A stretch of 48,240 bases of DNA from assembly GCA_026993265.1 (NCBI GenBank), contig JALWTY010000202.1, positions 1-48,240 of the forward strand, written 5' to 3'. Position 1 is the first letter of the stretch. Every line of letters starts with the position of its first letter. The notes under the pieces were generated by a model. That model made no database searches, was not told the DNA's origin, and worked only from the letters and a program-made list of their open reading frames with translations. The translations under genes were made by a program, and so were the position numbers. This stretch comes from Desulfobacterales bacterium (lineage in GTDB: Bacteria; Desulfobacterota; Desulfobulbia; Desulfobulbales; JAJRZW01). Positions 5-17,185 of the stretch are shown piece after piece.

Positions 5-3000
5 TTGCCCGGTGGCGAACTCCCGCAGGGGGGTGCGGTGGATGATGCGCCCAACGTGCTGGTCTTCGGCTCTGGCATCCGTCCGGAGGATCTGCGCTAT
101 CAGGAATCGAATGGCGACCTGACCATCGAGTTCGCCGGCCGTCCGGGCGACCGGGTGATTTTGCGCGGCTACGACGCTACGCGGGCGACCCGAACGCGCT
201 CGGTGGACATCTTCCGCTTTGCGGACGGCACCGAGATCTCGGTTGGGTTTATCGAACCTGCCGGTATCACCGAAACCGTGGGTGAGGACGGCGATCCGCT
301 GGTCGGTACGCCCTTCGCGGATACGCTCATCGGTGGCGACGGCGACGACGAGCTTGACGGTGCTGGGGGATCTGACCGGCTGGCTGGCGGAACCGGTTCG
401 GATACCTATCGAATCTACCAAGCGTGGGGCCGCACCCGCGTGACCGAGACAGTGATTCTGGAGGATTGGCGACCCGAAGACGTCAACCGGATCGAATTGA
501 CCGGCGACGTGAATGCAGCCGATCTGTTCCTGGCCTTCGACGGGCGCGACTTGATACTTCAGCTCGGGGAAGGGGGTGACCGGGTACGTTTCGCGGGGTT
601 CGATCCCAGGGGGGCCGGTATGCAGGCGCCGGTCGCGAGCGTCGCCGTACCGGCGGAGGGTGTCGAGCTTGCTTATGAGGATCTGGCCGCCCAAGGCATT
701 CGCATCATCGGTACGCCAGACGACGACGCGCTGGAAGGTACGGCGTTTGCCGACTGGATCGAGGGGCGTGCTGGTGACGACCTGATTGCTGGCGGCCCGG
801 GCGGTGACATCTATGTGACCGCCTCGGCCGAGGGCACCGACACCATCGTGGACGCCGAGGAGGGCGGCGCGCCGAACGTTCTGGTGCTGCCGGCCGGTAC
901 CACGCTCGACGATTTGCGCCTGTCTTTCGATGCAGAGGGCTTCCTGGTCATCGACATCGAGCGCACGGGCAACCGGATCCGGCTGTCGGGCTTCGATCCC
1001 TTGAATCCGCTCGGTCCCCGGGCGGTGGAGCGCTTCCGTTTCGGTCCCGACGGTGTCGAGATCGGCTATCAGGACCTGCTCGCGCGCGGTTTCCACATCA
1101 TCGGCACCGATGGGAACGACGCGCTCGGCGGCACCCTGTTCGGCGACCTGGTCGAAGGAGGCGCGGGTGAGGATCTGATCGATGCCACGCCGGGCGGAGA
1201 CCGCTTGGCGGGGGGCACCGGCAACGACACCTTCGTGGTGAATCCCGGCGATGGCGAGGTGACCATCGATGATCAGGCACAGCCCGAAGGCGGCAATGTC
1301 CTGCGTTTCGGCCCAGGTGTCGATCCGGCAGCGCTACGCAACAACCTGAGGTTCGCTCCGGATGGCCAAGGGGGATACCTGCTGCTGATTCCCTACGGGG
1401 AACCAGGTGACGTGGTGCGGCTGACCGGATTCGACCCGGCCAATGTGCGGGGCCCCCATGCTGTGGAAACCATCGAGTTCGCCGACGGGACGGTGGTGGA
1501 CTACGCGACGCTCGTTTCCTGGACCTTCATCGTCGAGGGCGACAATGGTGCCAATGCGCTCAACGGGACCGATGTGGGTGATCGTCTGTACGGCTATGGG
1601 GCGGATGACCTGCTGGAGGGCGGTGCCGGCGAAGACGTGCTCACCGGCGGTACCGGCAATGACGTCCTGCGTGGCGGGGAAGGCCGGGACGCCTATGTCG
1701 TGAACCTGGGCGACGGGGTGGACGTGATCGAGGATGATGCATCGAACGGTGTCGGCAACCTGCTCACCTTCGGTCCCGGCATCACGCCGGCGGACGTCGT
1801 CCTGAGCTGGGAGGGGGACGACCTGCTGGTCCGCTACGGCACGGGCGGCGACGAGGTGCGAGTGCGCGGACAGGCGCTTTCGAAGGTGATCGACACCTTC
1901 GAGTTCGAGGGCAACCTCCGCATGGGCCTGGAGGAGTTCCTCAATCGCGCGCCGGAAGCGGCTGCCGGGGGCGTGGCGGACCAGATGATACTGGAGGACT
2001 CGCCGTTCAATCTGACCCTGCCGGCGGACCTGTTCACGGATGCCGACGGGGATGGGGTGATGATGCGCGTGGGCGTCGCGGGCGTTGGCAATGCCTGGCC
2101 GGCCTGGCTCCAGTATGACGCGGCCACCGGCACATTTTCCGGTACGCCCCTCAACGAGGACGTAGGTAGTATCGATATCGTCATCCAGGGCATGGATACC
2201 CGGGGGGCTTCCGCATTCTATGGGTTCCGCATCGAGGTCCTGAATACCAATGACGCGCCGGAGGTCATGCAACCTGTCGGCGATCAGACAGCCACGGAGG
2301 ACATGCCATTTACCTTTACCTTGCCGGAGGAGGCCTTCGTCGATGTAGACGTGGGAGACGTGTTGACGTGGTCGGCCGAGCTGTCCGACGGCAGCCCGTT
2401 GCCCGAGTGGCTGTCTTTCGATGGGGTTACGCGCAGCTTCAGCGGCCTCCCCACCAACGACAATGTGGGCGACACGTCACTGCGCGTGAAGGTCACCGAC
2501 CTGGAAGGCGCGCAGGCATGGCAGGATTTCACCCTGACGGTAGTCAACGTCAACGACGCCCCCCAAATCGGCCTTGCCCTGGAGGACCAGGAGGCGAGGG
2601 TCGGCCACAGCTTCAGTTGGCAGGTGCCGGACGGTGCCTTCTACGACGTGGACGTTGGCGACGTGCTCACCTATTCGGCAGAACTGGCCGACGGCAACGC
2701 CCTGCCCGACTGGCTGGTGTTCGATCCAGCTACCGGTGCGCTCAGTGGAACGCCAGTGGCGGCCGGCGACTTCGAGATCCGGATCACAGCCACCGACCAG
2801 GCGGGTGCCTCAGTGAGCCAGACCTTTACCTTGGAAGTCGAGAGCGGTCCGATCACTGTGCCGGACGATGCGGACGTGATCGAAGACCGCAAGATCTTTG
2901 CCTGGGGCAATGTGCTGGCCAATGACAGCGATCCCGACGGACTGCCGCTTGAGGTTGCGGATCCAGGAGCGCGGCGCGGCGAATACGGAGTGCTGGGGTT

Positions 3001-3973
3001 GCTGCCCAACGGGCTTTATGGCTATTTGCTCGACAATCATTCCGCCAAGGTACAGTCGCTGGGGGCGGGGGAAACCGCTGTCGATACCTTCGTCTACACG
3101 GCGGACAACGGCAACGAACAGACCACCGGCGAACTCCGGGTGACGATACAAGGGACCAATGATATCCCACGGTTGGCCAGTCACCTTCCATCCGTGCAGC
3201 TTGCCCGGGGAAGCACGTTCAGTTGGCAGTTGCCCGCTGATAGTTTCGTCGATCCTGACCGCAACGATCGACTGATTTATACGGCGGAGCTTGCCGATGG
3301 CAGCCCATTGCCGGAGTGGCTGTCTTTCGACGCGAATTCGCTCACCTTCAGCGGCACGGCGCCCGGCGGGGCACACCATCCGCTGCACGTCCGGGTGGTG
3401 GCAAGCGACGGGCAAGGACCAGCTTCCCAGGCGAGCGGTATTTTCCATATCCGTTTCGGTACGGAGACTGTCCTGCCGTCGGAGGCCGATCTGGCTGCGC
3501 TGCCCCAGGGAATGTCGCGGATGGCAGCTCCGGCTGTCCCCCACGCCCAGACGGATGCCAGCGGCGAAGCGGATCCGCTTGAGGATTTTCTGAGAGGGTT
3601 CGGGGCGCAGACCGACTCTGGGGTGCGTTTCTGGCCACCGGCTGACCTCCGGGCAGTCTGCCGGACGACAGGCGTGCAGGGGGACCCGGTCGCAACGGCG
3701 ACGCCCCATGGTCTGGAGGCCAGGCACCACTGGGCAAGAATCGCCAGGGCGTTGGCTTCCCTCGAAAATTCCGGAGACGGCACGCCGGCCTGGGAAGATC
3801 CGGTCCACGGGGCGGATACGGGGGCCTTGGCCGGCATGTTGCTGAGCCAGAAGGCGCGGGCCGGCGTGCCAGCGGTAGATGGCGTGGGCATTGCAGCCGC
3901 AGGCGTCAGGCTCGAAACGTTCAGGGGGCTGCACGAAGGCCAGCCTGCCCTTCAGGTTGCCGGTCTGAAGTGA
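5..3973 (+). CDS. Large RTX-family repetitive exoprotein/adhesin, C-terminal 1322 aa (5' end lies outside the window)
   Basis: The frame is open from the window edge, and the 'start' at 5 is only an in-frame TTG. It has five ~120-aa modules with GGxGxD nonapeptide runs (e.g. [52 protein letters not shown]) next to '...NVL.FG.G....DL......F.F.DG' segments. Four ~100-aa cadherin/dystroglycan-like repeats follow (NDAP...[27 protein letters not shown]...SGTP), plus one VCBS-like unit ([10 protein letters not shown]). The stop overlaps the GTG of the next gene (GTGA). Confidence 0.85.
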   Translation: [1322 protein letters not shown]

Positions 3974-5334
3974 AGGAAAGCACGTTTCACCCCGTCCCTT
4001 CAGTGGACTGGCGGCGGTTTCATCCGCCGCTGGTCCGGATCCAGGAGAGTGCGCCTAATCCTGTGGGGCGGCGGGTGCTCTGGGCATTGTTTTCCCTGCT
4101 CGTGTTCCTGATCGCATGGGCGTTGCTCGGCCGCCTCGATGTCGTCGCCGTTGCCGAGGGCAGGCTCGTGCCCGAGGGGTATCTCAAGATTGTGCAGCCT
4201 GCTGAGGCCGGCGTCGTAAAGGAGATCCTTGTGCATGAGGGTGAGCGGGTTCGGGCCGGGCAGGTTCTCATGCGCATGGATACGGTCATGGCGGAAGCGG
4301 ATATCGCCGCCATGGCGTTGGAACAGGCCCGCCTGCGCCTGACGTTGGCCCGCATCGAGGCGGAACTTGATGGGCGGTCTTTTGAGCCGGAGGACGGCGG
4401 GTTTCCGGCACTTGCGCGGGAGCTGACGGAGCAGTTCCGGGCCAATCGGGAAGCCTTGGCTGCGGCCCTCGCAGAGGAACGTAGTCGGCTCCGAAGGGCC
4501 GAACAGGAATTGGCCGCGGCCCGTCAGCAGAAGACCCGACTGGAATCCGTGCTGCCATTCTACCGGGAAGAGGAGGCTGCGCTCGAGCAGCTCGGCGAGA
4601 AGGGATATTCCGGAAAACTGGAATTGATCACGAAACGGCGGGAAAGGATAGAAAAGGAACAAGAGCTGGCTACGCAGGTTCATGTGATCGCCTCGGCCCA
4701 GGCCGCCATCGAGGAGGCGCACAAGAAGCTCGCGCAGATCGAGGCCGATTACCGGCGCCGTCTGCATGCCGAACGGCAGGAGGTGAGGGCGCAGTTGGAC
4801 CGGCTCGTCCAGGAGCTGGAAAAACAGAAGCACCGCCGTGATCTCCTTGAACTCAGGGCACCCCGAGAGGGTGTCGTCAAAGAGTTGGCGACGCATACGG
4901 CGGGTACCGTGGTGCAGCCCGGTACCGTACTGGCGACTCTCGTGCCGGATACGAAGAAACTGAAAGCGGAGGTCTGGGTGTCGAATGAAGATGTCGGGTT
5001 CGTCCATGTGGGGCAGGAGGTGGCCCTCAAGTTCGCACCCTATCGTTTCCAGAAATACGGTATGGGGCGGGGCCAGGTAGCTTATGTCAGTGCGGATGCG
5101 TTGACGGCGGAAGAAGTCCGAGAGGCGGGTTTTCCCGTGATGCCCGGTGCTCCGTTACGCTATAAAGCGTTGGTAGCCTTGGAAAAGAACGTGTTGGAGC
5201 ATAAAGGACACAACTATCCCTTGACGGCGGGCATGCACGTCGTGGCCGAAATACGTCTCGGAGAACGCACGGTGGCCGAATACCTGCTCTCCCCGATTCG
5301 AAAGGTATGGCAAGAAGCGGGGCGGGAACGATAG
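3970..5334 (+). CDS. HlyD-family type I secretion membrane-fusion (periplasmic adaptor) protein
   Basis: 454 aa with an N-terminal TM segment (VLWALFSLLVFLIAWALLG), a lipoyl-like segment (VVKEILVHEGERVRAGQVLMRMD), a long coiled coil (aa ~110-300) and a beta-barrel C-terminus ending ...TVAEYLLSPI. It is translationally coupled to the RTX gene. Confidence 0.9.
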   Translation: MKESTFHPVPSVDWRRFHPPLVRIQESAPNPVGRRVLWALFSLLVFLIAWALLGRLDVVAVAEGRLVPEGYLKIVQPAEAGVVKEILVHEGERVRAGQVLMRMDTVMAEADIAAMALEQARLRLTLARIEAELDGRSFEPEDGGFPALARELTEQFRANREALAAALAEERSRLRRAEQELAAARQQKTRLESVLPFYREEEAALEQLGEKGYSGKLELITKRRERIEKEQELATQVHVIASAQAAIEEAHKKLAQIEADYRRRLHAERQEVRAQLDRLVQELEKQKHRRDLLELRAPREGVVKELATHTAGTVVQPGTVLATLVPDTKKLKAEVWVSNEDVGFVHVGQEVALKFAPYRFQKYGMGRGQVAYVSADALTAEEVREAGFPVMPGAPLRYKALVALEKNVLEHKGHNYPLTAGMHVVAEIRLGERTVAEYLLSPIRKVWQEAGRER

Positions 5335-5371
5335 TAAGAGGTTCGAACTGGAAGTCAATCTGCGGCTCCTC

Positions 5372-5956
5372 TTACTTCTTGGTGTCTCGAGGGAGAGAGC
5401 GTCCTCCGGGAAAGTACCGGTAGAAAGTGGCGGGGGACACGCCAAGTTGTTCGGCAATTTCCTGTACGGTGAGGCTGTCGTCCTTCAGCAAGGTTTTGCC
5501 GACCTGGATCTGCTTGGGTGAGAGCTTTCGTTTCCGACCAGGCTTGCGGCCGCGTTTCCGTGCTGCCTCGAGGCCGGCCTTCGTGCGCTCCCGGATCAGG
5601 TTTCGCTCGAACTCTGCCAGAGCACCCATGAGGTGGAAGAAGAGGCGGCCAGTGGCCGTTGTGGTGTCGATCTGCTCCTGGAGGCTGCGCAGGCCGACAC
5701 TCCGCTCCTCCAGCTCGTCTGCGATCCGGATCAGGTCCCGGAGGGAACGGCCAAGGCGGTCCAGGCGCCAGACCACCAGGACGTCGCCAGGTCGGAGCGC
5801 CTTCATGCAGGCGGTCAGGCCTGGGCGGTCGGCCTTGGCGCCGGAGAGGCGGTCCTCGTAGATATGGCTGGGCTCGACACCAGCCTCGGTCAGCGCGTCG
5901 CGCTGAAGCGACAGATCCTGGTCGTCCGTGGAGACGCGCTGGTAGCCAACGAGCAT
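5372..5956 (-). CDS. Serine recombinase (resolvase/invertase family)
   Basis: 194 aa with the catalytic N-terminus MLVGYQRVSTDDQ, the motif VWRLDRLGRS and a C-terminal HTH (LTVQEIAEQLGVSPATFYRY). It sits exactly where GC-rich sequence switches to AT-rich sequence. Confidence 0.9.
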   Translation of the reverse strand: MLVGYQRVSTDDQDLSLQRDALTEAGVEPSHIYEDRLSGAKADRPGLTACMKALRPGDVLVVWRLDRLGRSLRDLIRIADELEERSVGLRSLQEQIDTTTATGRLFFHLMGALAEFERNLIRERTKAGLEAARKRGRKPGRKRKLSPKQIQVGKTLLKDDSLTVQEIAEQLGVSPATFYRYFPGGRSLPRDTKK

Positions 5957-6276
5957 GGCGAAGGCCTCGCGTTGTATCTCGAATCCCGTGAGATGGTAGA
6001 TTATTTTGAGATATTATTTCAAGAGATATTTTTGAGAGGCCTTAGGACTAGGCAGGGGAGTAGCGCCACAGGCCTCTCATAAACGGTCATTTTTGGGACC
6101 TGCTGTGCCGGTCTTGGATTGGACAAAGGTCAGTGAAGTTTGAGCATTCATAGTTGGTGGGGAGTGGAAATTGGTTAAAGTGGGAGAATAGGCGGTGTGT
6201 CAACAATTTTTACTGGCGCGACGAGGTTGTAATTTTTTGATTTAACTGAACTATTTGGATTAGAGTGCATTTTTCC

Positions 6277-6293
6277 TGTCAAAATATTTGACA
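6277..6293. promoter_or_regulatory. 17-bp palindrome TGTCAAA-ATA-TTTGACA (candidate recombinase or repressor binding site; contains TTGACA)
   Basis: Perfect 7-bp arms with a 3-bp spacer. It lies 320 bp upstream of the recombinase start and 165 bp upstream of the 6457 operon. The TGTC half-site is reminiscent of resolvase res half-sites. Confidence 0.35.
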
Positions 6294-6456
6294 GATGTGA
6301 GTTACTTCACAATACTCCCCTATCCTATCTGGTTGATCTACCACACCTTTTGCTTAAGGCGCGGATTTTGCATGGAAAAACCAGATCGCCAGCTTCAAGA
6401 CTTCCGCTAGTTGGCCGATCAGGGCAAATGAGCAGCCACGAATATGAGGAGACGCC

Positions 6457-6957
6457 ATGTACGCAGCATCTTGCAAAGATGTTGAGTCAACGGTCATTAA
6501 TGCCTGCAATGTGCTTGGTAACTTCAAGGACGAGGGTGGCTTGCAGCGGGTCGTGGATGAAACAGTCGAAAATCTCACACACCTAGCGTGTTACCTGACA
6601 GCGGTGCATCACATCGTCCAAGGGGCGGCAGAGCTGCTAGAAGTGTGTTCCTCAACAAAAGTTATCGATCCCGACGATAGACTCTCTTCTATCATTGAGC
6701 AGGTAGAGAATGCGATCGAGCATACCATCGAAATGATGAAAGGAAAGAGATCATCAGCGCTCATGGATGACGATCTCTACGGACGTAACGAAAAACGCGT
6801 AACAGAGGCCTACAGTCGCACTATCAAGGCCTATGCGGCTCTGCATGATGCGGCAGTGAGATTGCGGTGGGCCATCATGGAGCATGATGCGGATCTTTCG
6901 CCTGTAAGTGACGCTTTCGAAAATATGGAAGATCTCGTTGCCAGTCTGAGCGCATGA
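6457..6957 (+). CDS. Hypothetical all-helical protein, first gene of a 4-gene operon (candidate atypical antitoxin)
   Basis: 166 aa with an ATG preceded by GAGGAG. It ends 9 nt before the RelE-like gene. I recognise no family. The acidic C-terminal tail is ...SDAFENMEDLVASLSA, and there is an R-x5-H string (RWAIMEH) near the C-terminus. Confidence 0.6.
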   Translation: MYAASCKDVESTVINACNVLGNFKDEGGLQRVVDETVENLTHLACYLTAVHHIVQGAAELLEVCSSTKVIDPDDRLSSIIEQVENAIEHTIEMMKGKRSSALMDDDLYGRNEKRVTEAYSRTIKAYAALHDAAVRLRWAIMEHDADLSPVSDAFENMEDLVASLSA

Positions 6958-6966
6958 TGTTCTCTG

Positions 6967-7257
6967 ATGCGCCCGCATCCTGTAAGGAAAATCCGTTTCA
7001 AGGATCGCTTCAAGAAAGACTACAGAAAATTGCCGGAAGATTTACAGCGCCAAGTTGGCAAAGCAATCGAAGCTTTGAAACAAGGTCCTTCTCCTAGGTG
7101 GTTGCGGTTCGAGAAACTGCAGGGATACAGGAACCCAGCTATTTATACGATTCATGTGACACCAAACCATAGCCACAAGATTTCATTTGAAATGGATGGC
7201 GATGAAGCGATTTTGAGGCGCGTTAGTACGCACAAATTGATTGATAAGTCGCCGTGA
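6967..7257 (+). CDS. RelE/ParE-superfamily type II toxin
   Basis: 96 aa with the typical layout: KIRFKDRFKKDYRKLPEDLQRQVGKAIEAL...LRFEKLQGYRNPAIYTIHVTPNHSHKISFEMDGDEAILRRVSTH. Confidence 0.8.
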   Translation: MRPHPVRKIRFKDRFKKDYRKLPEDLQRQVGKAIEALKQGPSPRWLRFEKLQGYRNPAIYTIHVTPNHSHKISFEMDGDEAILRRVSTHKLIDKSP

Positions 7258-7294
7258 ACTAGGACAAAATCTTTATTGATCGGATTTAAATCCC

Positions 7295-7822
7295 ATGAGT
7301 GCGCTAGCTGCAGAAGTCAAAAATTTAGATCTAGATGATGCTGAGAGATTGGCGGAAGAAGTACGTCTCGAATTCTGGCGTGATGTGTTTCCTGTGGATC
7401 CAGTCGTGATTGCCAAACAGATGGATCTGAAAGTGATCGAGGCCGAACTTCCTGCGCCTGTTTCTGGCGGGTTGCTGCGTAAGGATGGGGACGATCCAGT
7501 TGTCGTGTTAAATGAATCTGAGCCGAAGACAAGAAAGCGATTTACCTGTGCACATGAGCTTGGTCACTATGTTTATCGGCTTGAAACAGGATGTGATCGT
7601 GAATTTGAATACACGGATTTGAGAAATCATTTATCCTCAATGGGCATGGATAAGGAGGAAATGTTCGCCAATAGATTTGCAGGCGCATTGTTGATGCCCC
7701 GGTCTAAGGTGGAAGAACTCATGAAAAATCATTTGCCTGTTTTGGTTATGGCGCATAAGTTCGGTGTGTCGGCCGATGCGATGCGAGTTCGCCTTAAGGT
7801 GCTGAATCTATTTGATTGTTGA
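7295..7822 (+). CDS. ImmA/IrrE-family (COG2856) zinc metallopeptidase
   Basis: 175 aa with the HExxH motif in FTCAHELGHYV and the downstream EEMFANRFAGALLMP typical of the family. No fused or adjacent HTH partner is present. Confidence 0.85.
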   Translation: MSALAAEVKNLDLDDAERLAEEVRLEFWRDVFPVDPVVIAKQMDLKVIEAELPAPVSGGLLRKDGDDPVVVLNESEPKTRKRFTCAHELGHYVYRLETGCDREFEYTDLRNHLSSMGMDKEEMFANRFAGALLMPRSKVEELMKNHLPVLVMAHKFGVSADAMRVRLKVLNLFDC

Positions 7823-8199
7823 TTGAGTGTTGGTTAGGTGTTCCGTTGTCATCGAAGCGCAACCGACATAGCAAATTTTCTATTGGAGATCTGCTTTCGA
7901 AAGCTCCAGATGAGGACCACAACGGTAAGCCTGGACGCGCCATTTACTCGCTTGATTCTGAAAAGCGACGTTTAGAAAACGAGAGCATTCGCGTTGATGT
8001 TGAGCTCAAGAGAGACTACGGCAAGAAAATGTATAAGATTCTTGTCGGCCAGATCTCAGTCATGAATTTTATATTCATTATGGTTGGATTTGGGGCGTTC
8101 GACTTTTCGGATGAAGCGTTGAATCTCTACGTTGGTGGGACGCTGGCTGAAATTTTTGGCCTCGTTTTTGTTATTGTTCGATACTTGTTCCGTTCTTGA
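7816..8199 (+). CDS. Small membrane protein (two C-terminal TM segments), start uncertain
   Basis: The ORF-track start is a TTG overlapping the ImmA stop, and the first ATG is at 8029 (MYKILVGQISVMNFIFIMVGFG...LAEIFGLVFVIVRYLF). It is the same strand as the three upstream genes and contiguous with them. Confidence 0.5.
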   Translation: MLIECWLGVPLSSKRNRHSKFSIGDLLSKAPDEDHNGKPGRAIYSLDSEKRRLENESIRVDVELKRDYGKKMYKILVGQISVMNFIFIMVGFGAFDFSDEALNLYVGGTLAEIFGLVFVIVRYLFRS

Positions 8200-8406
8200 G
8201 CTATAATTTACCCAGTCACTGCATGAATTTTCTCTCCCGGAAGGCGGGGGCATTTAGACTTCTCCATAGGTGAAGTCCAGCAGCGGTGCCGTGCGCAGCG
8301 GAAAATCCATCAAAAAAAGCTCCTGGTGTTCTGTGCGCTGGAGTTATGCAGCCGTCAGGTTTAATTAATTTCGGGATGCGGGCCTACTATAGCGGGGGTC
8401 GTAGAG

Positions 8407-9186
8407 ATGCGATCTGAACATTTCTACAAGGCGGCGTTGATCAAGGCCCTTCTACAGAAGAAGGAAATTGGGTTCGGCGATGTAGTGCTGAATGAATTAA
8501 CCATCCGCCGCATGACGCGGCGTGTCGATATTGTTGCCGTCAATGGAAAACTCCATGCCTTCGAGATCAAGACAGATGCTGACTCTTTATCCAGAGTCGA
8601 TGATCAGGTCAGAGACTATGCTCAGCACTTTGATAAGGTAACAGTTGTTTGTGGTACTAGTCACTATGAGAAATTGAAGGACAGATTACCAGAGCGCGTT
8701 GGCCTTTGGGTATTAGATGAGCGAAGCGGCTATTCCATCAGAGTGATACGAAGGGGGAGGACGAAGCTAGTCTCTAACCCTGAAAAATTGTGGACTTTTA
8801 TTCCCCGCAAAGAGATAGAGCGCTTTCTGCGAAAGAACCGTGTTCGTATCTCTGGGCGTGAATATCGAGAGGTTTTGTGTGAGATAGCAAAGGCCGAGCT
8901 CGATAAGAACAAGATCAGGGCATTTGCAATTTCGTTCGCCAAGCAGCGGTACGGAGAACGCTGGAGGAGGTTTCTTCGCAAGATAGAGGGCAAGCAAGGT
9001 AACCCAGATCCGGAAGATATTGCAATTCTGTTATGGGAGAAGCCCCAGCAATCCGGCGCTGGCAGCAATAGCAAGCCGTCTATGCCTCAGGAATTACCAT
9101 CTTGGCATGAAGAGGGCAGGCCGCGGCCAATCCCTGTCGCTTGGGCAGAAGCTAGAATTCGAAATCGACAAAATCTTCATCGATAA
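8407..9186 (+). CDS. sce7726-like protein with a PD-(D/E)XK nuclease-type motif
   Basis: 259 aa. RRVDIVAVNGKLHAFEIKTDADSL gives D-x11-ExK, followed by ...YAQHFDKVTVVC....VGLWVLDE..., which matches my memory of the 'sce7726 family'. The C-terminal 60 aa are low-complexity. Confidence 0.7.
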   Translation: MRSEHFYKAALIKALLQKKEIGFGDVVLNELTIRRMTRRVDIVAVNGKLHAFEIKTDADSLSRVDDQVRDYAQHFDKVTVVCGTSHYEKLKDRLPERVGLWVLDERSGYSIRVIRRGRTKLVSNPEKLWTFIPRKEIERFLRKNRVRISGREYREVLCEIAKAELDKNKIRAFAISFAKQRYGERWRRFLRKIEGKQGNPDPEDIAILLWEKPQQSGAGSNSKPSMPQELPSWHEEGRPRPIPVAWAEARIRNRQNLHR

Positions 9187-10282
9187 GTTCCTCGTCTTCA
9201 TGAAGAATCGGAGATTCGTCCATTGTCGCCATGATTTGGCGGTATAGATGAACATTTACACGGACCTGGATCCATTTAGCTGGTGAACCCATCTTCTCCG
9301 TATTCCCAGCTGCAACTTGTTTGATCATTCTCGTACCCCAAATATCCAGGTTCTCATCCCAGCGATGGTCTTTTATAAGGCGTTGTGCGCATTCGACGTA
9401 ACCCGCCGAACCTGATTGCGAACGGCTTCTATAATAAAGCCAGGAATCCGTAAGTGGATAATCGATCCTTGGTACAAAGCCCTTGATCACCTCATCATAA
9501 ACTCTTGGATGAATAGACGAATGGTCTCCATAAATGATGTAATACCGCCCTCCTAATTCCTGATAAAGTTTCCTTTCAAGAATGGTGATCTCACCTTCAA
9601 GTTTCCCATGTTCAGCCGCGCTCTTAGGATAGCTCGATCCCATGGAGATACACTCTATCCCTTTGTCTATTGCGCGGATGCTGTTCATCATGTCGACCAT
9701 CAGGTCGATGGTCGAATTCAATGATGATTGATGAGACAAATATCCTGCGTCCAGAATGCAGATGCAGTGTTTTGCAGGATCGTCCAAGGCTAGCAAAATA
9801 TCTTTTGCTGCTTCTTTTTCCGGAATAGAAGTGATATCGATATGCAGAGCAATTTTTCCATCCTTTTCTAGCTTTCGCGCTTGCTGAACGATATGGCGGA
9901 GTGTCGGATTTCTTATGTCATCTCCAAATTGTACTACTGGAATGATCTTCTCCCGTCCAAGGCCATTATCCTGATCTGCGATTTTGTTTATATAGCTTCT
10001 CCAGCTGACGAAGCTATCCGCTGGGTCGAGTAGTCTTTCTATTTCATCATTCTGGTGTTTTGGTATTCTTGTTAGGTCGAGAATATGAGGGCGTTCTCCA
10101 ATTGCTTCTATAGCCTTGTTGTAAGGTGTAAACACATCTTCAAGTCTTGGCCATTTCCCTATAACAAATACTGGGAGCATGTAATCTTTTATGTTGTCAT
10201 CAAGTTCATAAAGCCCGTTCAGTTCTGCAGGTCTGGTTCGGATGAGCGGGCAGTAATTGACATCCTCGAAGCTAATCGTCAT
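9152..10282 (-). CDS. Beta_protein-family (phage T4 'beta protein'-like / sce7725-like) protein
   Basis: 376 aa. The N-terminus ...YCPLIRTRPAELNGLYELDDNIKDYMLPVFVI... matches the family signature (Y.PilK.k.gE..AL..L......i.Pl.Ei). Its 3' end overlaps the convergent 8407 gene by 35 nt. Confidence 0.65.
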   Translation of the reverse strand: MTISFEDVNYCPLIRTRPAELNGLYELDDNIKDYMLPVFVIGKWPRLEDVFTPYNKAIEAIGERPHILDLTRIPKHQNDEIERLLDPADSFVSWRSYINKIADQDNGLGREKIIPVVQFGDDIRNPTLRHIVQQARKLEKDGKIALHIDITSIPEKEAAKDILLALDDPAKHCICILDAGYLSHQSSLNSTIDLMVDMMNSIRAIDKGIECISMGSSYPKSAAEHGKLEGEITILERKLYQELGGRYYIIYGDHSSIHPRVYDEVIKGFVPRIDYPLTDSWLYYRSRSQSGSAGYVECAQRLIKDHRWDENLDIWGTRMIKQVAAGNTEKMGSPAKWIQVRVNVHLYRQIMATMDESPILHEDEELIDEDFVDFEF

Positions 10283-10772
10283 TTCTGTTCTCCGAATGCT
10301 CGACTGGTGTTGGCCTAATGGGTGCGGACGCCGTCGTGTTTATTACAATTTCTCTAAGGATATCGTAAGCACCCGCTAGCTGGCTAATGGTTTGCTGATC
10401 TGTTTCTGCAGACCGCTCAAGCTCATCTATGGTGAGCTGCAATTTCTTGTGTTCTTCTTCTAGACGTGTTTTGGTTTTTTGTAATTTTCTAATTTTTTTC
10501 TCCGATCCGTCGAGTTTTTCTTTATGATTATCTTCAAGGGTTTTAATCGTTCGTTGATGAAAAATCGCAAAACCAATCGCCCATAACCAACCAACACCAC
10601 CTAATCCTATAAAAACCATATATTTATAATATTCGCTAACATATTTGTCTGGCGCGAAAAGGAGTGCCAAGGCAATTCCGGCAATCGGAATAATGTAGCT
10701 GAAGACGTATTTCACTGTACATGCCCCCACTATCGTACCTCGGCTTCCGGTCCGGATGTCAGGGCCTGACAA
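10272..10772 (-). CDS. Membrane protein with a cytoplasmic coiled coil; first gene of the Beta_protein operon
   Basis: Two TM segments (YIIPIAGIALALLF, FIGLGGVGWLWAIGFAIF) are followed by a charged coiled coil (KKIRKLQKTKTRLEEEHKKLQLTIDELERS). The track start at 10772 is a TTG, and GTG at 10715 (MKYVFSY...) is more plausible. It overlaps the Beta_protein start by 11 nt. Confidence 0.6.
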   Translation of the reverse strand: MSGPDIRTGSRGTIVGACTVKYVFSYIIPIAGIALALLFAPDKYVSEYYKYMVFIGLGGVGWLWAIGFAIFHQRTIKTLEDNHKEKLDGSEKKIRKLQKTKTRLEEEHKKLQLTIDELERSAETDQQTISQLAGAYDILREIVINTTASAPIRPTPVEHSENRNDD

Positions 10773-11355
10773 TAACCTCAGTGGCTGGATGCTGTGGGTT
10801 CAGCGGTCTCAGGGATTTCCAGCCCGGAGATAGGTGTCAATAGCGATATCCTTAGTGAAGCCCGCTGTTATATTGAACCTTTCCTCGTAAGACGGCAGAT
10901 AGTGGCTTGGCTATGCGCATTGTGTGGCTTCCTCTGTCCTGGTCTTAGCCGTAACAGGTAACCACAGTTCTTAAGAAGAGGCATAGAAGATCTGCCTCAA
11001 AAAGGTTGCTTGCAGTCATAGTCATGCGGCGGTGGTGAGCGGTGAAGCTTCACCTTCATCTTCACGATCACGAGGCCGCGAACTGGCATTATGCAAGAGC
11101 CGCGGCCTTTCATAGCCATCTTTTAGCACTCCCTATTAAGGTTCGTGGCAGGTTTAGGCCCACCAATGGGGTAGTCCGCCTGCGCGACATCCGACGTCAT
11201 AAATACAAGTAATAGCCAAGGCTGTCAAGATAATACGTCAACATATGGGGGTGTACGGGTATTAATAGACGCAGCATATTGTGGATATCCTGTAGATAAA
11301 CAGTTTGCCGGTGGCCAATGTGTTGCCTGGGAGGACGCGGGCACCGACGGTTATT

Positions 11356-11383
11356 TTGGAGCCACCTGACTCCGGGCTATAAT
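11356..11383 (+). promoter_or_regulatory. Candidate sigma70 promoter of the csrA paralogue (TTGGAG-N16-TATAAT)
   Basis: TTGGAG lies at 11356-11361 and TATAAT at 11378-11383. The leader that follows carries three GGA motifs (11388, 11399, 11415), and the last one lies within the SD GGAAGGG. Confidence 0.45.
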
Positions 11384-11429
11384 CGGCGGAAAAGAACCGG
11401 AGGGTATTAACCACGGAAGGGTAGCAGAA

Positions 11430-11630
11430 ATGCTTGTTTTGACCAGGAAATCGGGGGAGTCCATTCTGATTCGCCTCTCTGACGAGGTCGATCCCGACAC
11501 GCCCGTGCGGGATCTGTTCCAGAAAGGCCCCATAAGGATACAGTTGCTGAACAGGCAGGACCGGAGCCACCGCATCGGCATCGAGGCGCCGGCGGAGTTC
11601 GTGGCCCTGCGCGAGGAGATCGCCGACTGA
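11430..11630 (+). CDS. csrA: CsrA/RsmA-family RNA-binding regulator, RsmN/RsmF-like variant with an internal insertion
   Basis: 66 aa: MLVLTRKSGESILI...(insert SDEVDPDTPVRDLFQKGP)...IRIQLL.....HRIGIEAPAEFVALREEI. The CsrA hallmarks (MLvLtRk.GEsi.I, iGI.AP..v.i.ReEi) are present. The extra ~18 aa sit where RsmN/RsmF carries its internal helix. Confidence 0.85.
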   Translation: MLVLTRKSGESILIRLSDEVDPDTPVRDLFQKGPIRIQLLNRQDRSHRIGIEAPAEFVALREEIAD

Positions 11631-11852
11631 GGTGGGGCGCGGCTCTCGGGCTGCTGCTGCCAGCGGTCTGCGCCGGCTGGACCAATGGTCCCTCGGGAAA
11701 CGCCGTCACCGATGAAGCGTGGGAGTGCGCGGACCCGCCGTACTAGCGCAATCATTGCTGTCTGTTCAGGCGGGGCAATCGGGATCGGGTACTGGGTCAT
11801 CGATGAAAAGATGGCATGGAAGATTGGCAAATAGAGGGCCTGCTCGGAATGG

Positions 11853-14800
11853 ATGAGAAATACAAATATAGGGGGCAGGTGGTTATTGTTGATCTGCCGG
11901 ATTTACGAAGAAACCGAATATAACTCAACGAGTGTAAAGAATATGTTTAGGGGGGGGAGAAACGGGGTTCGCCCAGTATGCCCTTGCATTATAGCTTTTC
12001 CCTTGTCGGTGATCTGCCTCGTTTCTTATTTTCTGTCCGGACTGATAATTCTTTCCACCCCTGATTTGGTGCGCGCCCATTCAGACGGGCTTCTGTGGGA
12101 CGCAAATAGAGCGCACCAAGAATGCATAAATCTAATTCCCCGAGGAGACCCTGGTCAGTTTACCTGTACTTTTTGTGCTGGCAATCATGAGATAAATCCT
12201 GGCGACACCTGTACATATCTGTATGGTGGTGGAGGTCAAACAAGAACGGTGCTGGCGCCAATGTGGGTAAATCTGCAATATGGGAAGTTCTATTCTGGAA
12301 GCCATTACGATCCTACTCTTTGCCCGGCGGGGACGGAATACAATCAAGACGGATACTGCTCACCAGGGCTGCCAACTTATTCACCGCCAAATATTGAGAA
12401 AAGCAAGAATCTTGGCTGCGGAAGGAATAGTAGTCTGGCGGGAAATCCCTGCAATCCAGCTACGGGCAACAAGTATTTGTTTGAGAAAGATTTTGCGGCT
12501 CCTAACGGGTCACTTTCTTTTGTTCGCTACTACAATAGTTTTTTGGACAAGAATTTTGGCCTTGGCTATGGCTGGACGACACCGTATTTTTCAAGACTTG
12601 AGATAGGCGGGGCTACAATAGTGGCGCGACGACCGAACGGACGCGGAGATATATTCATCGACAATTCCGGCCAATGGATTGGTGATGCTGATAGTAATTT
12701 AAGTTTGCATCAAGATGTATCTGGTTTTACGTTACAGCTGCCGGATGGAACAACAGAAAAATACGATACAAATGGAAAGCTCGTTTCAATAACTGATGTC
12801 TTTGGCAACAACACAACATTGACATATGATACCCAAGGGCAGATTAGAACCATATCCTCCGATACCGGAGAGTCACTGACTTTTACCTATAACGCTTCAA
12901 AAATTGGGACCGTCACTGATCATTCTGGTCGTGTCTGGGTATACCGGTATAACCCATCGGAAGGTCTCGAGTACGTGGAAAATCCAGATACAACAATTCG
13001 CCAATATCATTACGAAGATGTAAATTTCCCACATTTACTTACTGGCATCACTGACGAGCGGGGTATTCGTTATGCGACCTATCAATATGATGAGCAAGGT
13101 GGGGTCATAGCAAGTTACCACGCGAATGATGTAAATCGAATTGATATTTCATACGTGGATAGCAATACAAGGATTCTCAAGAATAGCACTAATGAGACTA
13201 CTACCTATGCGATCACCCAGCAGCTAGGCGTCGCCCTAGTTACCAACATCTCCGGTCCTGGCTGCTCCACCTGCGGCACCGGCAACACCAGCTATCAATA
13301 CGACCCCGCCAACAACAACCTCCTCAGCAAGACAGAAAACGGCGTCACCACGGAATACGGCAACTACGACGCCAAGGGCCAGTACGGCTATAAGATCGAG
13401 GCCAAAGGTACGCCTGAGGAGCACCGTACCGACTACACCTACGACAACCGCTTCTACAATAAGATTACCTCCATCACCGAACCCTCGGTCTTCCCAGGCA
13501 ATCAGAAGATCACTACCTATACCCACGATGACTGGGGCAACCGCACCTCGGAGACCATTTCGGGCTTCGACCCGGTCGGTAATCCGGTTTCCCGCACCAC
13601 TACTTGGCAATACGGCGGCGATGGCACCCCCGAATGTGATGCCGTGCCGCTGCACCAGCTCTGCCGGGTCGACGGGCCGCGCACGGATATCGAGGACATC
13701 ACTTGGTATCGCTACTATCCCAATGACAGCTCGATCCCGGTGGGCAGCCGGGCTCGGCTGAAGGAGGTCGAGGACGCCAACGGGGTGCTCATTCGATCCA
13801 ACATTAAGTACACCGCCACCGGCAAGGTCGCCTCCGAGGACCGTCCCAACGGCCTGCGTCTCACCTACAGCTACTACTATGGCAACGACCGCCTGGAATC
13901 CCTCACCGAGACCGACACGGCCACTGGAGAAAGCCGTACCACCCGCTGGACCTATCTCCCCACTGGCGAAGTGGAGAGCATCACCCAGGGCGATGGCACC
14001 CCCGAGGCGGTCACCCTGTACTTCGGCTACGACGACGCCCGCCGCCTGGTCCGGGTCACCGACGGCCTCGGCAACTACATCGAATACACCCTCGACACGG
14101 AGGGCAACCGCCTGGCAGAGAAGACCTATGACACTGCCGGCACCCTGAAAAAGGCCATCACCCAGACCTTTGACCCCTATAACCGCCTCGACACCACCGC
14201 CCAGGCCAATGAATCAGTGGACTATGATTTCGCCCCCAATGGCACCCTCGACCAGACGACCGACGGCCGGGGTGTGATCACCGATTACAGCTACGATGCT
14301 CTGAAGCGCCTGGTCAGCGCCACCCAGGACCCGGGCGGTACCGATCCCGCCACCGCTGATACCGCTGTCACCTACGGCTATGATCCCGCCGGCAACCTGA
14401 CCTCGGTCACTGATCCCGTCGGCGGCAACACTACCTATGCCTACGACGACCTAGGCAATCTGGTTTCGCGGACCAGCCCCGACACTGGTACCACCAGCTT
14501 CCGGTACGACGAGGCCGGCAACCTGATCGAGAAGACCGACGCCCTGGGGCAGGTCTTCACCTACAGTTACGACGCCCTGAACCGCCTCACCCGCATCGAC
14601 GCCCCTGGCACGGCCGACGACATCGAGTATGTCTATGACCGCTGCGCCAAGGGTGTTGGCCGGCTGTGCCGGGTGAGCACCGCCGATGGCGCCGTGCACT
14701 ATGCCTACGATGCTTTCGGCGACATCACCCTTCACCAGGCTGTCCGCTATGAATACGACGCCGCGGGCCGCCTCCAGGCCCTGACCTACCCTAGCGGGGC

Positions 14801-16796
14801 CCGGGTGAGCTACAGTTACGATGCCGCCGGCCAGGTCACCCAGGTCGACTTCCAGCATGGCAGCCTGACCCGCACCTTGGCCCAGGGCGTCACCCACGCC
14901 CCCTTCGGCCCCGTCACCGCTTTCACCTACGGCAACGGCCTGACCTTCAGCCAGAGCCTCGATACCGCCTACCGCAGCCTGCGCCGCACCGTGCCCGGGA
15001 TCCTCGACCTCGACTACACCAGCACCGGCTATCCGGAGGGCTACGACGCCAACGGCAACCTCCTGGTCCGACGCGATCTCGTCGCCGGAGCCGACACCGG
15101 CTTCGCCTACGATGCCCTGAACCGCCTCGACACCGCTGACGGCCCCTTCGGCACCCGGGACTACGACTATGACAAAAACGGCAACCGGGCCCAGCTCACC
15201 GCGGACGGCCAGGCCACGGCCTACAGCTACACCTCCAACAGCAACCGCCTGAACAAGATCGGCGCCACCGACGTTCTGCTGGACGCCAACGGCAACACCC
15301 TCAACCAGGGCCTGTGGACCTACGCCTACACCACCCACAACCGCCTCAAGACCGCCACCGAGGACACCACCCTCCGGGCCACCTTCGCCTACAACGGCCT
15401 GGGCCAAAGGAGCCAAAAAACCGACGCCGTCACCGGCCGTGGAAAACTGTTCCTCTACGGAACCCAGGGCGAACTGCTGATGGAAGCCGACGCCGATGGC
15501 AACATCCTCACCGAGTACATCTACCTCGATGGCGAACTGCTCGCCCTCTACCGCCCGGACGAGGATCAGGACGGCACCCCCAATGCTGAGGAGCCGCCCG
15601 AGAACCTGCCCGCCAACCTCGACAGCGACGGCGACGGCGTCCTGAACCGGGATGAATGGCTGATCCACGGCAGCGACAGCCTGGATGCCGACACGGACGG
15701 CGACGGTATTCTGGACGGCGAGGAGATTGCCCAGGGCACCGACCCCGTCTATGCCCTGAGCTATCCAGGGGACGGCGACGTCAACCAGAACGGCGAGGTC
15801 AATGTTGGTGATCTCCTCCTGGTGACCCAGATGGCCCTGAAGATGCGCGCCCCGACGCCGGAGCAGTTCGTGCACGCCGACATCAACCGAGACGGCATCA
15901 TCGACGTGGTGGATGTGCTGCTGTTGCAGCGGAAGATCCTGTACCCGACCGGCAGCGCGGCGCTCGATACAGGCGACGAAACCAGGCTGGCGAACAAAAC
16001 CGAAGCCGTTGTTCCCGCGCGGGCTGGAATCCAGACCCTTCTGGACTATCTCATCCCGCTAGCCCATGCCGCTGCCGGCGATCCTGGGCAGCTATACTAC
16101 GTGCACAACGATCATCTGGGAACGCCGTGGGCTGTGACCGATGACAGCGGAACCAAGGTCTGGAGCGTAAGCTACGATCCGTTCGGCAAGGCGACGGTGG
16201 ATGCGGGCAGTATGATTGAGATGAATGTGCGGCTTCCGGGACAGTATTATGACCAGGAGACCGGGCTGCACTATAACTACTTCAGGTATTACGATCCCCG
16301 AACAGGTAGGTACATCACAGCGGATCCGCTTGGATTGGCGGGTGGGGTCAATATATACACGTACGCCCTGAATAATCCGTTATATTGGATTGACCCTTAC
16401 GCGCTTGATATTACTGTTTCGTTTAATCCCAACGCAGCGGCTGGCTTTGGCCACGTTGGACTTGGAGTTAACACTCTAGATACGGTAGGGCAGAGACCTC
16501 AGCCAAGTGCGAGTTCCATTCGAATGGCGTTAGGATTGAATGTTCCAGGGGAAATATCTCCAGATCCGACCGCGCCATTAAGTGTCACGATACCGACTAC
16601 GTCAGAGCAAGATCGAAATGCGCAGAAATGTATTGAGACGCGGACACAGCAACAGCAAGATTACAATTTGTATAACAATAACTGCACTCTGTTTGTTAGA
16701 CAGTGTTTGGGGGCGGCGGGGATAAATACGCCTAATACCATCCTTCCAAGAACGCTATTTAATGATCTTCAACGCAATTTTGCTGGAAATCCGTAA
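11853..16796 (+). CDS. RHS/YD-repeat polymorphic toxin (1647 aa)
   Basis: There are dozens of YD repeats (e.g. YTYDDLGNLVSRTSPDTGTTSFRYDEAGNLIEKTDALGQVFTYSYDALNRLT). The RHS core reads LYYVHNDHLGTPWAVTDDSGTKVWSVSYDPFGK...GQYYDQETGLHYNYFRYYDPRTGRYITADPLGLAGG (PxxxxDPxGL cleavage motif at 16323-16337), followed by a ~130-aa variable tip. An alternative start at 11943 (MFRGG...) would give a signal/TM-like N-terminus. Confidence 0.9.
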   Translation: MRNTNIGGRWLLLICRIYEETEYNSTSVKNMFRGGRNGVRPVCPCIIAFPLSVICLVSYFLSGLIILSTPDLVRAHSDGLLWDANRAHQECINLIPRGDPGQFTCTFCAGNHEINPGDTCTYLYGGGGQTRTVLAPMWVNLQYGKFYSGSHYDPTLCPAGTEYNQDGYCSPGLPTYSPPNIEKSKNLGCGRNSSLAGNPCNPATGNKYLFEKDFAAPNGSLSFVRYYNSFLDKNFGLGYGWTTPYFSRLEIGGATIVARRPNGRGDIFIDNSGQWIGDADSNLSLHQDVSGFTLQLPDGTTEKYDTNGKLVSITDVFGNNTTLTYDTQGQIRTISSDTGESLTFTYNASKIGTVTDHSGRVWVYRYNPSEGLEYVENPDTTIRQYHYEDVNFPHLLTGITDERGIRYATYQYDEQGGVIASYHANDVNRIDISYVDSNTRILKNSTNETTTYAITQQLGVALVTNISGPGCSTCGTGNTSYQYDPANNNLLSKTENGVTTEYGNYDAKGQYGYKIEAKGTPEEHRTDYTYDNRFYNKITSITEPSVFPGNQKITTYTHDDWGNRTSETISGFDPVGNPVSRTTTWQYGGDGTPECDAVPLHQLCRVDGPRTDIEDITWYRYYPNDSSIPVGSRARLKEVEDANGVLIRSNIKYTATGKVASEDRPNGLRLTYSYYYGNDRLESLTETDTATGESRTTRWTYLPTGEVESITQGDGTPEAVTLYFGYDDARRLVRVTDGLGNYIEYTLDTEGNRLAEKTYDTAGTLKKAITQTFDPYNRLDTTAQANESVDYDFAPNGTLDQTTDGRGVITDYSYDALKRLVSATQDPGGTDPATADTAVTYGYDPAGNLTSVTDPVGGNTTYAYDDLGNLVSRTSPDTGTTSFRYDEAGNLIEKTDALGQVFTYSYDALNRLTRIDAPGTADDIEYVYDRCAKGVGRLCRVSTADGAVHYAYDAFGDITLHQAVRYEYDAAGRLQALTYPSGARVSYSYDAAGQVTQVDFQHGSLTRTLAQGVTHAPFGPVTAFTYGNGLTFSQSLDTAYRSLRRTVPGILDLDYTSTGYPEGYDANGNLLVRRDLVAGADTGFAYDALNRLDTADGPFGTRDYDYDKNGNRAQLTADGQATAYSYTSNSNRLNKIGATDVLLDANGNTLNQGLWTYAYTTHNRLKTATEDTTLRATFAYNGLGQRSQKTDAVTGRGKLFLYGTQGELLMEADADGNILTEYIYLDGELLALYRPDEDQDGTPNAEEPPENLPANLDSDGDGVLNRDEWLIHGSDSLDADTDGDGILDGEEIAQGTDPVYALSYPGDGDVNQNGEVNVGDLLLVTQMALKMRAPTPEQFVHADINRDGIIDVVDVLLLQRKILYPTGSAALDTGDETRLANKTEAVVPARAGIQTLLDYLIPLAHAAAGDPGQLYYVHNDHLGTPWAVTDDSGTKVWSVSYDPFGKATVDAGSMIEMNVRLPGQYYDQETGLHYNYFRYYDPRTGRYITADPLGLAGGVNIYTYALNNPLYWIDPYALDITVSFNPNAAAGFGHVGLGVNTLDTVGQRPQPSASSIRMALGLNVPGEISPDPTAPLSVTIPTTSEQDRNAQKCIETRTQQQQDYNLYNNNCTLFVRQCLGAAGINTPNTILPRTLFNDLQRNFAGNP
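15768..15941 (+). other. Dockerin-like duplicated EF-hand segment embedded in the RHS core, preceded by TSP3-like Asp-rich repeats (from ~15555)
   Basis: GDGDVNQNGEVNVGDLLLVTQMAL...HADINRDGIIDVVDVLLLQRKIL is the two-fold D.N.DG.v...D signature of type I dockerins. Upstream, DSDGDGVLNRDE...DADTDGDGILDGEE resembles thrombospondin type 3 repeats. Confidence 0.6.
16407..16793 (+). other. C-terminal toxin tip of the RHS protein: His...Cys permuted papain-like (LRAT/PPPDE-like) candidate
   Basis: After DPLGL...WIDPYAL the sequence becomes AT-rich. It has an ordered His (AAGFGHVGLGV) followed by ...YNNNCTLFVRQCL (an NCxxF-type Cys), the order seen in LRAT/PPPDE-type permuted NlpC/P60 folds. This is a motif-level call only. 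Confidence 0.4.
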
Positions 16797-17185
16797 TGGT
16801 TGCATTGCTAGACAGTTTTCCATTTAGCAGGCCGCTTGTTCTTTATGTTCTTGCAGTTTCCATAGCAAGAGGAATTTTCTTGCCGGATTTCAGGTATGAT
16901 ATAGTTTCGATTATCTTAATACAGGTGGTTTATCCGGTTGCGTTGTTCGTGCCGATGATAATGCGATTACAAGATGAGCATTTCTGGGGCTACTATTTTC
17001 TTTGTATTGGTGGAATAGTGTTAGCAGCGTTACTAGCATTGCTCAGATATTATTTTGAGGCGGGAAAAGCTAATGTTACTGACCAAGTCAGTGTGGCGGT
17101 GGTATCGTTATCTTTTGCTGCTCAGATTGGCCTGTATACCGTGTTGGTTATTTCGTTACTTATTGTTAATAAGGTGAAAGGGTGA
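16796..17185 (+). CDS. Putative RHS immunity protein (polytopic membrane protein)
   Basis: 129 aa. The ATG overlaps the RHS stop (TAATG). It has four hydrophobic segments, is AT-rich like the toxin tip, and occupies the canonical immunity position. Confidence 0.65.
   Translation: MVALLDSFPFSRPLVLYVLAVSIARGIFLPDFRYDIVSIILIQVVYPVALFVPMIMRLQDEHFWGYYFLCIGGIVLAALLALLRYYFEAGKANVTDQVSVAVVSLSFAAQIGLYTVLVISLLIVNKVKG

Follow-up and report, generated by a model that had tools for sequence, protein, structure and literature searches.

We describe a three-gene locus at positions 8407-10772 of a 48,240-nucleotide (nt) stretch of DNA, hereafter the window, from a Desulfobacterales bacterium (GenBank assembly GCA_026993265.1, contig JALWTY010000202.1). 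The locus is very probably a complete, functional-looking and divergent Gop-Beta-cII anti-phage cassette, a known kind of defence system whose namesake was discovered in satellite phage P4. All three genes are intact, with cII on the plus strand facing gop and then beta on the minus strand. A preliminary description of the same DNA had reported these open reading frames (ORFs) and their overlaps, and its coordinates, strands and lengths were borne out. The features of the cassette are as follows:

8407-9186, plus strand: cII, sce7726/Phage_P4_cII family, 259 amino acids (aa)
9152-10282, minus strand: beta, Beta_protein family, 376 aa
10272-10730, minus strand: gop, 152 aa from a GTG at 10730; the ORF reaches a TTG at 10772 (166 aa)
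9152-9186: convergent 3' overlap of cII and beta, 35 nt, read from the sequence
10272-10282, minus strand: overlap of the gop stop and the beta start, 11 nt (ATGACGATTAG), read from the sequence

Relationship to gop-beta-cII of satellite phage P4

Each protein of the trio matched one model of a single named PADLOC system, gop_beta_cll (cll 2e-55, beta 4e-94 and gop 2.3e-5, as judged by model E-value). A tblastn comparison with annotated phage records returned the P4 'beta gene product' as the top phage match of the window Beta; the preliminary description had tied this family to a protein of T4, and the matching product is that of P4. The P4 record (NC_001609, genes P4p01-03) has gop (247-648) and beta (651-1718) on the plus strand and cII (1746-2540) on the minus strand, and the RefSeq name of P4 cII is 'sce7726 family protein'. 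By BLASTP, the window proteins are 26% (Gop, E 1e-9), 35% (Beta, E 5e-69) and 32% (cII, E 5e-30) identical to their P4 counterparts.

The two loci contain the same three families in the same order and orientation, with gop and beta co-directional and coupled and cII convergent. This layout is common to the window, P4, a metagenome contig from ENA (L053, discussed below) and 29 genome loci. Gop, Beta and cII measure 133, 355 and 264 aa in P4 versus 152, 376 and 259 aa in the window. In both, Gop has two transmembrane (TM) helices, a GW motif, a coiled coil and a basic-then-acidic tail, cII has the same catalytic motif and Beta has the same invariant residues. The membrane protein, which had been taken for an extra partner of the other two, is Gop, the canonical third gene. 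The copies differ in host (a high-GC proteobacterium for the window, an enterobacterium for P4), in setting (the resolvase-csrA hotspot of a conjugative element versus the int/cos hotspot of P4) and in the 3' ends of beta and cII, which overlap by 35 nt in the window and are separated in P4 by a 27-nt spacer annotated as holding a terminator. Every sequence and layout feature of Gop-Beta-cII is found in the window; residence in a P4 satellite, which does not define the system, is not.

P4 gop-beta-cII has been reported to protect Escherichia coli from both lambda and P1 (Rousset et al. 2022, PMC9122126). The same paper states, with reference to Ghisotti et al. 1990, that Gop in the absence of Beta is toxic, and its authors suggest a toxin-antitoxin (TA)-like abortive-infection system. 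The phage gene orf184 has been reported to trigger programmed cell death via gop-beta-cII (Silas et al. 2023, bioRxiv 10.1101/2023.04.06.535777). The system is thus already known, catalogued in PADLOC and validated in E. coli, and the window copy is a divergent member of it.

Features of the three proteins

The 259-aa protein had been called sce7726-like with a D-x11-ExK core, and both points held. It is a member of NCBIfam sce7726_fam (NF033832; 143.7 bits versus a cutoff of 70, E 5.8e-42), and there is a dedicated, newer Pfam family for cII (PF26915, Phage_P4_cII) in addition to the PADLOC cll model (PDLC02989). An AlphaFold2 model with a predicted local distance difference test (pLDDT) score of 85 has an N-terminal PD-(D/E)XK domain (residues ~1-120), a helical C-terminal domain (~125-210) and a disordered tail. 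The predicted secondary structure of the core is alpha-beta-beta-beta-alpha-beta (helix 4-17, strands 26-33, 38-45 and 49-55, helix 64-74, strand 77-83). The D-x11-ExK core corresponds to D41/E53/K55, and E30, D41, E53, K55 and Q67 are invariant in 43 sequences. Foldseek placed 3dnx first (E 1e-6), followed by AF1548 (1y88) and Can2 nuclease domains; these MmcB-like and AF1548-like proteins and Can2 share with the N-terminal domain of cII the restriction-endonuclease-like fold and the E..D..ExK motif. The likeness to 3dnx is one of fold alone (17% identity, TM-score 0.38 by query and 0.64 by target), and the helical C-terminal domain is without counterpart there. A profile search of PDB chains gave no sequence-level match to cII below E 0.07. 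Given the restriction-endonuclease-like fold and the invariant E30, D41, E53 and K55, it is plausible that cII is a catalytically competent nuclease.

Genes of the sce7726 family also occur on many plasmids paired with a Beta_protein-family gene, with which they are convergent and overlapping (by 32 nt in Bacillus and 62 nt in Acinetobacter). The plasmid sce7726 proteins are shorter (189-200 aa) and are without most of the C-terminal region seen in the window cII. An orphan cII that is 92% identical at the aa level to the window protein was found at 7992-8837 of a metagenome contig (L052; JGI 3300028908), placed between helicase and SLT genes of a different mobile element. This contig and the window share only window positions 8398-9243 (93% nt identity), which include the last 92 nt of beta. 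Either beta and gop were therefore lost there or cII moved alone, and orphan cII copies circulate.

Assignment of the 376-aa protein to the Beta_protein family was also upheld (Pfam PF14350, 1.2e-51, covering residues 10-350), and the PADLOC beta model that it matches is PDLC02985. The family has 1004 representatives (at 50% identity) with E <= 1e-10 among 1.84 billion proteins, and its members are nearly all stand-alone proteins of ~350-375 aa. The AlphaFold2 model is of high confidence (pLDDT 91, predicted TM-score 0.90) and has an alternating beta/alpha fold. Its best Foldseek matches in the PDB are all TIM barrels, namely class II fructose-bisphosphate aldolases, glycoside hydrolases, endonuclease IV and methylenetetrahydrofolate reductase, with TM-scores <= 0.54 and 7-14% identity; a PDB search with the Beta profile gave no sequence match below E 0.07. 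Such generic matches make the fold class clear and leave the specific enzyme family unassignable, and Beta is predicted to be a stand-alone TIM-barrel protein.

An alignment of 30 Beta sequences has ~22 invariant columns, most of them polar. The motifs are Y-G-D253-H254-S-S256-I-H258, P-R272-I-D274 and R341-V-N343-x-H345; E20, S217, E236, D253, S256, D274, R285, R341, N343, H345 and Q349 are invariant, and D69 and D178 are nearly so. In the model, the conserved polar residues (including D69, D178, S217, D253-H258 and R272-D274) sit at or just past strand ends. Because the active sites of TIM barrels lie at strand ends, this arrangement suggests that Beta is an enzyme or ligand-sensing regulator more likely than a passive antitoxin.

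Beta had also been described as sce7725-like, a label that we dropped because neither the window Beta nor the P4 Beta matched the NCBIfam sce7725 model even at E <= 10. Of the NCBIfam pair sce7725/sce7726 (NF033831/NF033832), only the sce7726 half is thus represented in the window. The Bacillus Beta alone gave a sub-threshold N-terminal match to sce7725 (E 0.0035), and judging from these profile searches the relationship is at most a distant one.

The third protein was correctly described as a two-TM coiled-coil protein. The hydropathy of its 166-aa ORF peaks twice, at residues ~22-40 and ~53-71, and a tail of ~94 aa beyond these peaks is charged and helical. Gop has two TM helices, the second with the GW motif of the family, as well as a charged helix resembling a coiled coil, a P-R patch of basic character and a C-terminus that is acidic. 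The PADLOC gop model (PDLC03001) matched with 22.6 bits, and P4 Gop found the window protein at 9e-8 by tblastn. Since the Gop match was the weak link in the identification, we built a leave-one-out profile from 27 Gop-like ORFs found by synteny plus P4 Gop, with the window protein left out. This profile scored the window Gop at 27.1 bits (E 3e-7), whereas none of 1000 shuffles exceeded 6.2 bits and no other ORF of the window exceeded 11.9 bits. A word-seeded homologue search with Gop returned as its sole match the same protein under a shorter start call; Gop homology therefore rests on the synteny-derived sequences and the leave-one-out profile.

Overlaps and expression signals

The 11-nt overlap implies that the gop-beta operon is translationally coupled, and in other loci, too, gop ends a few nt from the beta start. 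The likely gop start is GTG 10730, which public gene calls use and which a GAGG ribosome-binding site precedes by 9 nt; TTG 10772 is a less likely start. At the other end of beta, a terminator scan found no terminator-like site in the overlap with cII. The 35-nt overlap leaves a terminator no room, so that the two transcripts must be partly complementary. The regions upstream of the two transcription units are as follows:

8178-8207, plus strand: candidate cII promoter TCGATA-18-TATAAT, 200 nt upstream of cII, the sole sigma-70-like match in the region
10773-11429, minus strand: gap between the divergently oriented gop and csrA, presumed site of the gop-beta promoter

The candidate cII promoter is a consensus match alone and is not significant on its own, with one site found by the sigma-70 scan versus 5.3 expected from shuffles. 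The gop-csrA intergenic region falls within a segment (10793-11744) that aligns to L053 at 79% nt identity. No tRNAs or known RNAs were found in a scan of the window.

Survey of Beta-cII loci

A pattern scan of one genome per species yielded 49 Beta-encoding loci from Alpha-, Beta- and Gammaproteobacteria. The preliminary description had made its proposal depend on co-occurrence of the three genes beyond this genome, and they are found together across these three classes. By tblastn, cII lies directly downstream of beta, always convergent, in 46 of the 49 loci; in one more (L042) it was found by BLASTP, another ends at a contig edge before cII, and L050 is the sole locus where cII was not detectable beside beta. 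With L053 and P4 counted there are 48 beta-cII pairs; the distance between the two stop codons falls between -82 and +34 nt in 45 of them, with an overlap in 27, which makes the 35-nt overlap of the window a trait of the family. Beyond cII, the neighbouring genes differ from locus to locus.

The upstream partner of beta is less constant. Gop is directly upstream in 29 of the 49 loci (~60%), and an M78 peptidase module takes its place in five (~10%), all from Xanthomonadaceae. Gop is absent from ~15 of the 49, including loci of Photorhabdus, Curvibacter, Paraburkholderia, Caballeronia, Achromobacter and Microvirga, and a Bacillus plasmid is alike. With Gop variable and cII near-constant, the fixed part of these loci is the Beta-cII pair and the changeable part is the gene upstream, which suggests that Beta-cII, not Gop-Beta, is the constant core.

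The Xanthomonadaceae variant (L039, L040, L042, L044 and L051, at ~4800-7700 in each; Stenotrophomonas and Pseudoxanthomonas) consists of a TM protein of 180-280 aa, an M78 peptidase of 174-180 aa and beta, with cII convergent and a 3' overlap of 21-24 nt where measured. In at least two of these loci (L040 and L042) it adjoins an ORF that by eye is integrase-like. The variant recalls PD-lambda-2, a system described as an operon of HigB-like, Xre-peptidase and Beta-like genes, of which the last encodes a protein 'related to a P4 phage antitoxin' that is required for defence (Vassallo et al. 2022, PMC9519451); Gop and cII do not figure in its description. The four-gene variant looks like a bridge between gop-beta-cII and PD-lambda-2. 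In a further set of loci (L011, L019, L027, L028, L030, L031, L037, L047, L049 and the Bacillus mycoides plasmid L055), Beta-cII occurs with no Gop-like or other coupled upstream gene, and the two-gene pair may be self-sufficient.

These patterns admit a broader hypothesis, which we hold tentatively and at somewhat less than even odds. Under it, a broad defence family would have the Beta-cII pair as its true conserved core and, upstream, an exchangeable partner: Gop in ~60% of the loci, TM plus M78 proteins in Xanthomonadaceae, HigB and Xre-peptidase in PD-lambda-2 and, in about a quarter of the loci, none. Different effectors would be under the control of Beta, acting as an enzyme or sensor; cII would be a constant executor or sensor, and the antisense 3' overlap part of the regulation. 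If this is true, the textbook picture of Gop as toxin and Beta as antitoxin is incomplete, and the RelE-M78-TM operon adjacent to the window cassette could be a second effector arm of the same system.

Two kinds of conserved gene were seen to recur next to cII in otherwise unrelated genomes. One encodes a ~210-aa protein (L016 7893-8519, plus strand, Aquabacterium; L051 8051-8683, plus strand, Pseudoxanthomonas) and the other, by eye, an apparent ribbon-helix-helix and zinc-finger protein (L009 9392-10024 and L048 8340-9035, both minus strand).

Genomic setting and the neighbouring operon

The cassette lies in a low-GC island (45-47% GC versus 61-72% in the flanks), in agreement with the AT-rich island reported earlier. 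The island starts at a serine recombinase, and genes for TraG_N, TraD and a conjugative ATPase follow from ~24 kb on. A megablast of the window against plasmids gave short traD/ATPase matches alone (73-76%). The genes that border the cassette and its immediate neighbours are as follows:

5372-5956, minus strand: serine recombinase/resolvase (Pfam Resolvase 3.1e-49), left border of a variable cargo hotspot, given as context
6967-7257, plus strand: RelE-like gene (TIGR02385 sub-threshold, 21 bits versus a cutoff of 27.9; PHROG 'RelE-like toxin' 1.5e-4)
7295-7822, plus strand: M78 peptidase, no helix-turn-helix (HTH) domain (PADLOC capP 1.6e-26; phrog_87)
7816-8199, plus strand: 2-TM protein, 127 aa, with a C-terminal 2-TM domain (phrog_5346 8e-20); 7-nt overlap with the M78 gene
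11430-11630, plus strand: csrA-like gene (Pfam CsrA 9e-12), right border of the hotspot, given as context

The closest full relative of the locus is L053, in which the backbone is the same and the cassette is strongly diverged. At the aa level the resolvase is 100% and CsrA 92% identical, versus 52% for Beta, 44% for cII and 26% for Gop, and an SDH-protease/NfeD module stands where the window has its RelE-like, M78 and TM genes. Near-identical flanks around a diverged cassette indicate cassette exchange at the hotspot, as is typical of defence cargo. On this comparison, the cassette is exchangeable cargo between the serine recombinase and csrA of a conjugative element. The CsrA-family regulator is a conserved backbone gene of the mobile element common to the window and L053.

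The RelE-like/M78/2-TM operon (6967-8199) is tight and co-directional with cII. We regard it as a separate neighbouring module, for which a functional link to the trio is possible. The most serious rival to a three-gene system starts from that link, and holds that all six genes form one functional unit, a composite related to PD-lambda-2. Both PD-lambda-2 and the window have a Beta-like protein with a toxin-like gene and a metallopeptidase near it, and the window Beta matches PD-Lambda-2_C, albeit at 9e-14 over residues 156-347 versus 4e-94 for the beta model. The window M78 is 33-37% identical to the M78 genes that stand directly upstream of beta in the five tightly arranged Xanthomonadaceae loci, and the protease of L053, although of a different type, occupies the same position next to cII. 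The arrangement is nevertheless unlike that of PD-lambda-2: the RelE-like and M78 genes of the window lie beyond cII, on the opposite strand to beta and outside its operon, neither matches PADLOC PD-Lambda-2_A or PD-Lambda-2_B at E <= 0.01, and the three-gene PD-lambda-2 operon is not present. L053, closest of all to the window, is without RelE and M78, and M78/ImmA genes are common on mobile elements. A relationship of the 127-aa protein, which matches only the C-terminal part of the phrog_5346 profile (positions 114-199 of 201), to the Xanthomonadaceae TM proteins was considered and rejected, as there was no BLAST match and no shared PHROG. A general association of proteases with the cII side was likewise rejected, given the heterogeneous neighbours and an M78 gene in just 5 of 49 loci. 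We consider the six-gene unit unlikely.

Proposed mode of action and alternative explanations

We hypothesize that the cassette acts by abortive infection. The gop and beta genes would be co-transcribed and translationally coupled, and Gop would be a small lethal effector of the inner membrane, with two TM helices and a cytoplasmic coiled coil, that on the evidence of its topology probably disturbs the membrane. Beta, as an enzyme or ligand-sensing regulator, would keep Gop in check. Upon infection, a phage product would disable or re-programme Beta, and the freed Gop would cause cell death or arrest before phage release. For this copy the trigger step is proposed by homology, orf184 being the reported trigger of the E. 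coli system. As cII invariably accompanies Beta, also in loci that lack Gop, it may serve as a second nucleolytic effector or as a nucleic-acid sensor, and its helical C-terminal domain could bind nucleic acid. Through the overlap of their 3' ends, the gop-beta and cII transcripts are antisense to each other, which may balance their expression. Confidence in the individual steps is much lower than in the identification of the cassette, ranging from tentative to about even.

Several points weigh against the identification or against this scheme. The experiments were made with the P4 system, to whose proteins those of the window are only 26-36% identical, and the Gop match is weak in each single test. 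Beta has no specific enzyme match, and a scan of the region did not detect a consensus promoter for gop-beta. The Gop-less loci mean that Gop cannot be the sole effector of the family, and a simple picture of Gop toxin and Beta antitoxin may be incomplete. We found no paper giving the molecular mechanism of gop-beta-cII in the literature searched, and the steps beyond co-transcription of gop and beta are inferred.

The toxicity of Gop without Beta, as stated in PMC9122126, could also mean that the trio is mainly an addiction or stabilisation module of the conjugative element, with Gop as toxin, Beta as antidote and phage defence absent or incidental. Its position on a mobile element beside TA-like genes (the RelE-like/M78 genes and an HTH antitoxin-like gene) and the presence of sce7726-Beta pairs on many plasmids would fit such a role. 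The P4 homologue, however, defends its host from both lambda and P1 and has a phage gene as its trigger, and a pure TA role leaves both the universally linked nuclease-fold gene cII and the turnover of alleles between near-identical backbones, typical of defence cargo, unexplained. The two roles are not mutually exclusive, and a module that serves mainly for addiction is in our view improbable.

Two further explanations were rejected and carry almost no weight. The preliminary description had proposed an uncharacterised defence system, of which the defence part stands; no function is assigned by NCBIfam or Pfam, PHROG lists families 984, 9159 and 5975 as of 'unknown function' and no solved structure matches by sequence, but all three proteins match a named PADLOC system, cII has its own Pfam family, the P4 genes share the layout and the family has been tested in E. 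coli (PMC9122126; 10.1101/2023.04.06.535777). A remnant of an integrated P4-like satellite would recall the namesake system, which resides in the P4 hotspot by int and cos, but tblastn of all P4 proteins found only gop, beta and cII in the window and no match to int, alpha, sid, delta, psu, epsilon or cI, a tRNA is lacking and the locus is flanked by a serine recombinase and by conjugation genes of TraG/TraD type.

As a discovery, the Gop-Beta-cII copy of the window matters little; its worth is as comparative material. A diverged copy outside enterobacteria and P4 satellites shows which features are conserved, namely the polar pocket of Beta, the E..D..ExK motif of cII, the GW motif and basic/acidic tail of Gop and the abutting convergent 3' ends. 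These features point to sites for studying phage sensing by Gop-Beta-cII and PD-lambda-2. The locus also documents cassette-level turnover of Gop-Beta-cII in the resolvase-csrA hotspot of a conjugative element.

Other genes of the island and its border

The preliminary description had placed the trio among RelE/ImmA, RHS, Fic and TAC modules. The M78 peptidase, RHS and Fic genes were recovered, the RelE-like gene is a sub-threshold match and, in place of a confirmed TAC module, an HTH_3 protein alone was found. The Fic-domain protein (17397-18575, minus strand) matches PADLOC SoFic over its full length (7.3e-105), so that the island has a second known, single-gene defence system. The RHS/YD-repeat toxin (11853-17185, plus strand; 1647 aa) has DUF6531, TSP3 and dockerin repeats and a variable C-terminal tip, and is followed by a 129-aa ORF, probably an immunity gene, whose start overlaps the RHS stop. 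The GC content switches within the RHS gene, from ~46% at the 5' end to ~65% in the core. At 18793-20101 (plus strand), the middle ORF (19243-19659) matches HTH_3 and PADLOC PDC-M64B/C, and the flanking ORFs of 141 and 158 aa are without a Pfam or PADLOC match. At the other end, positions 5-5334 (plus strand) encode a large RTX/He_PIG/cadherin-like repeat protein that runs off the window start, followed by an HlyD-family membrane-fusion protein; together these genes resemble an adhesin locus of the type I secretion kind, directly adjoining the island.

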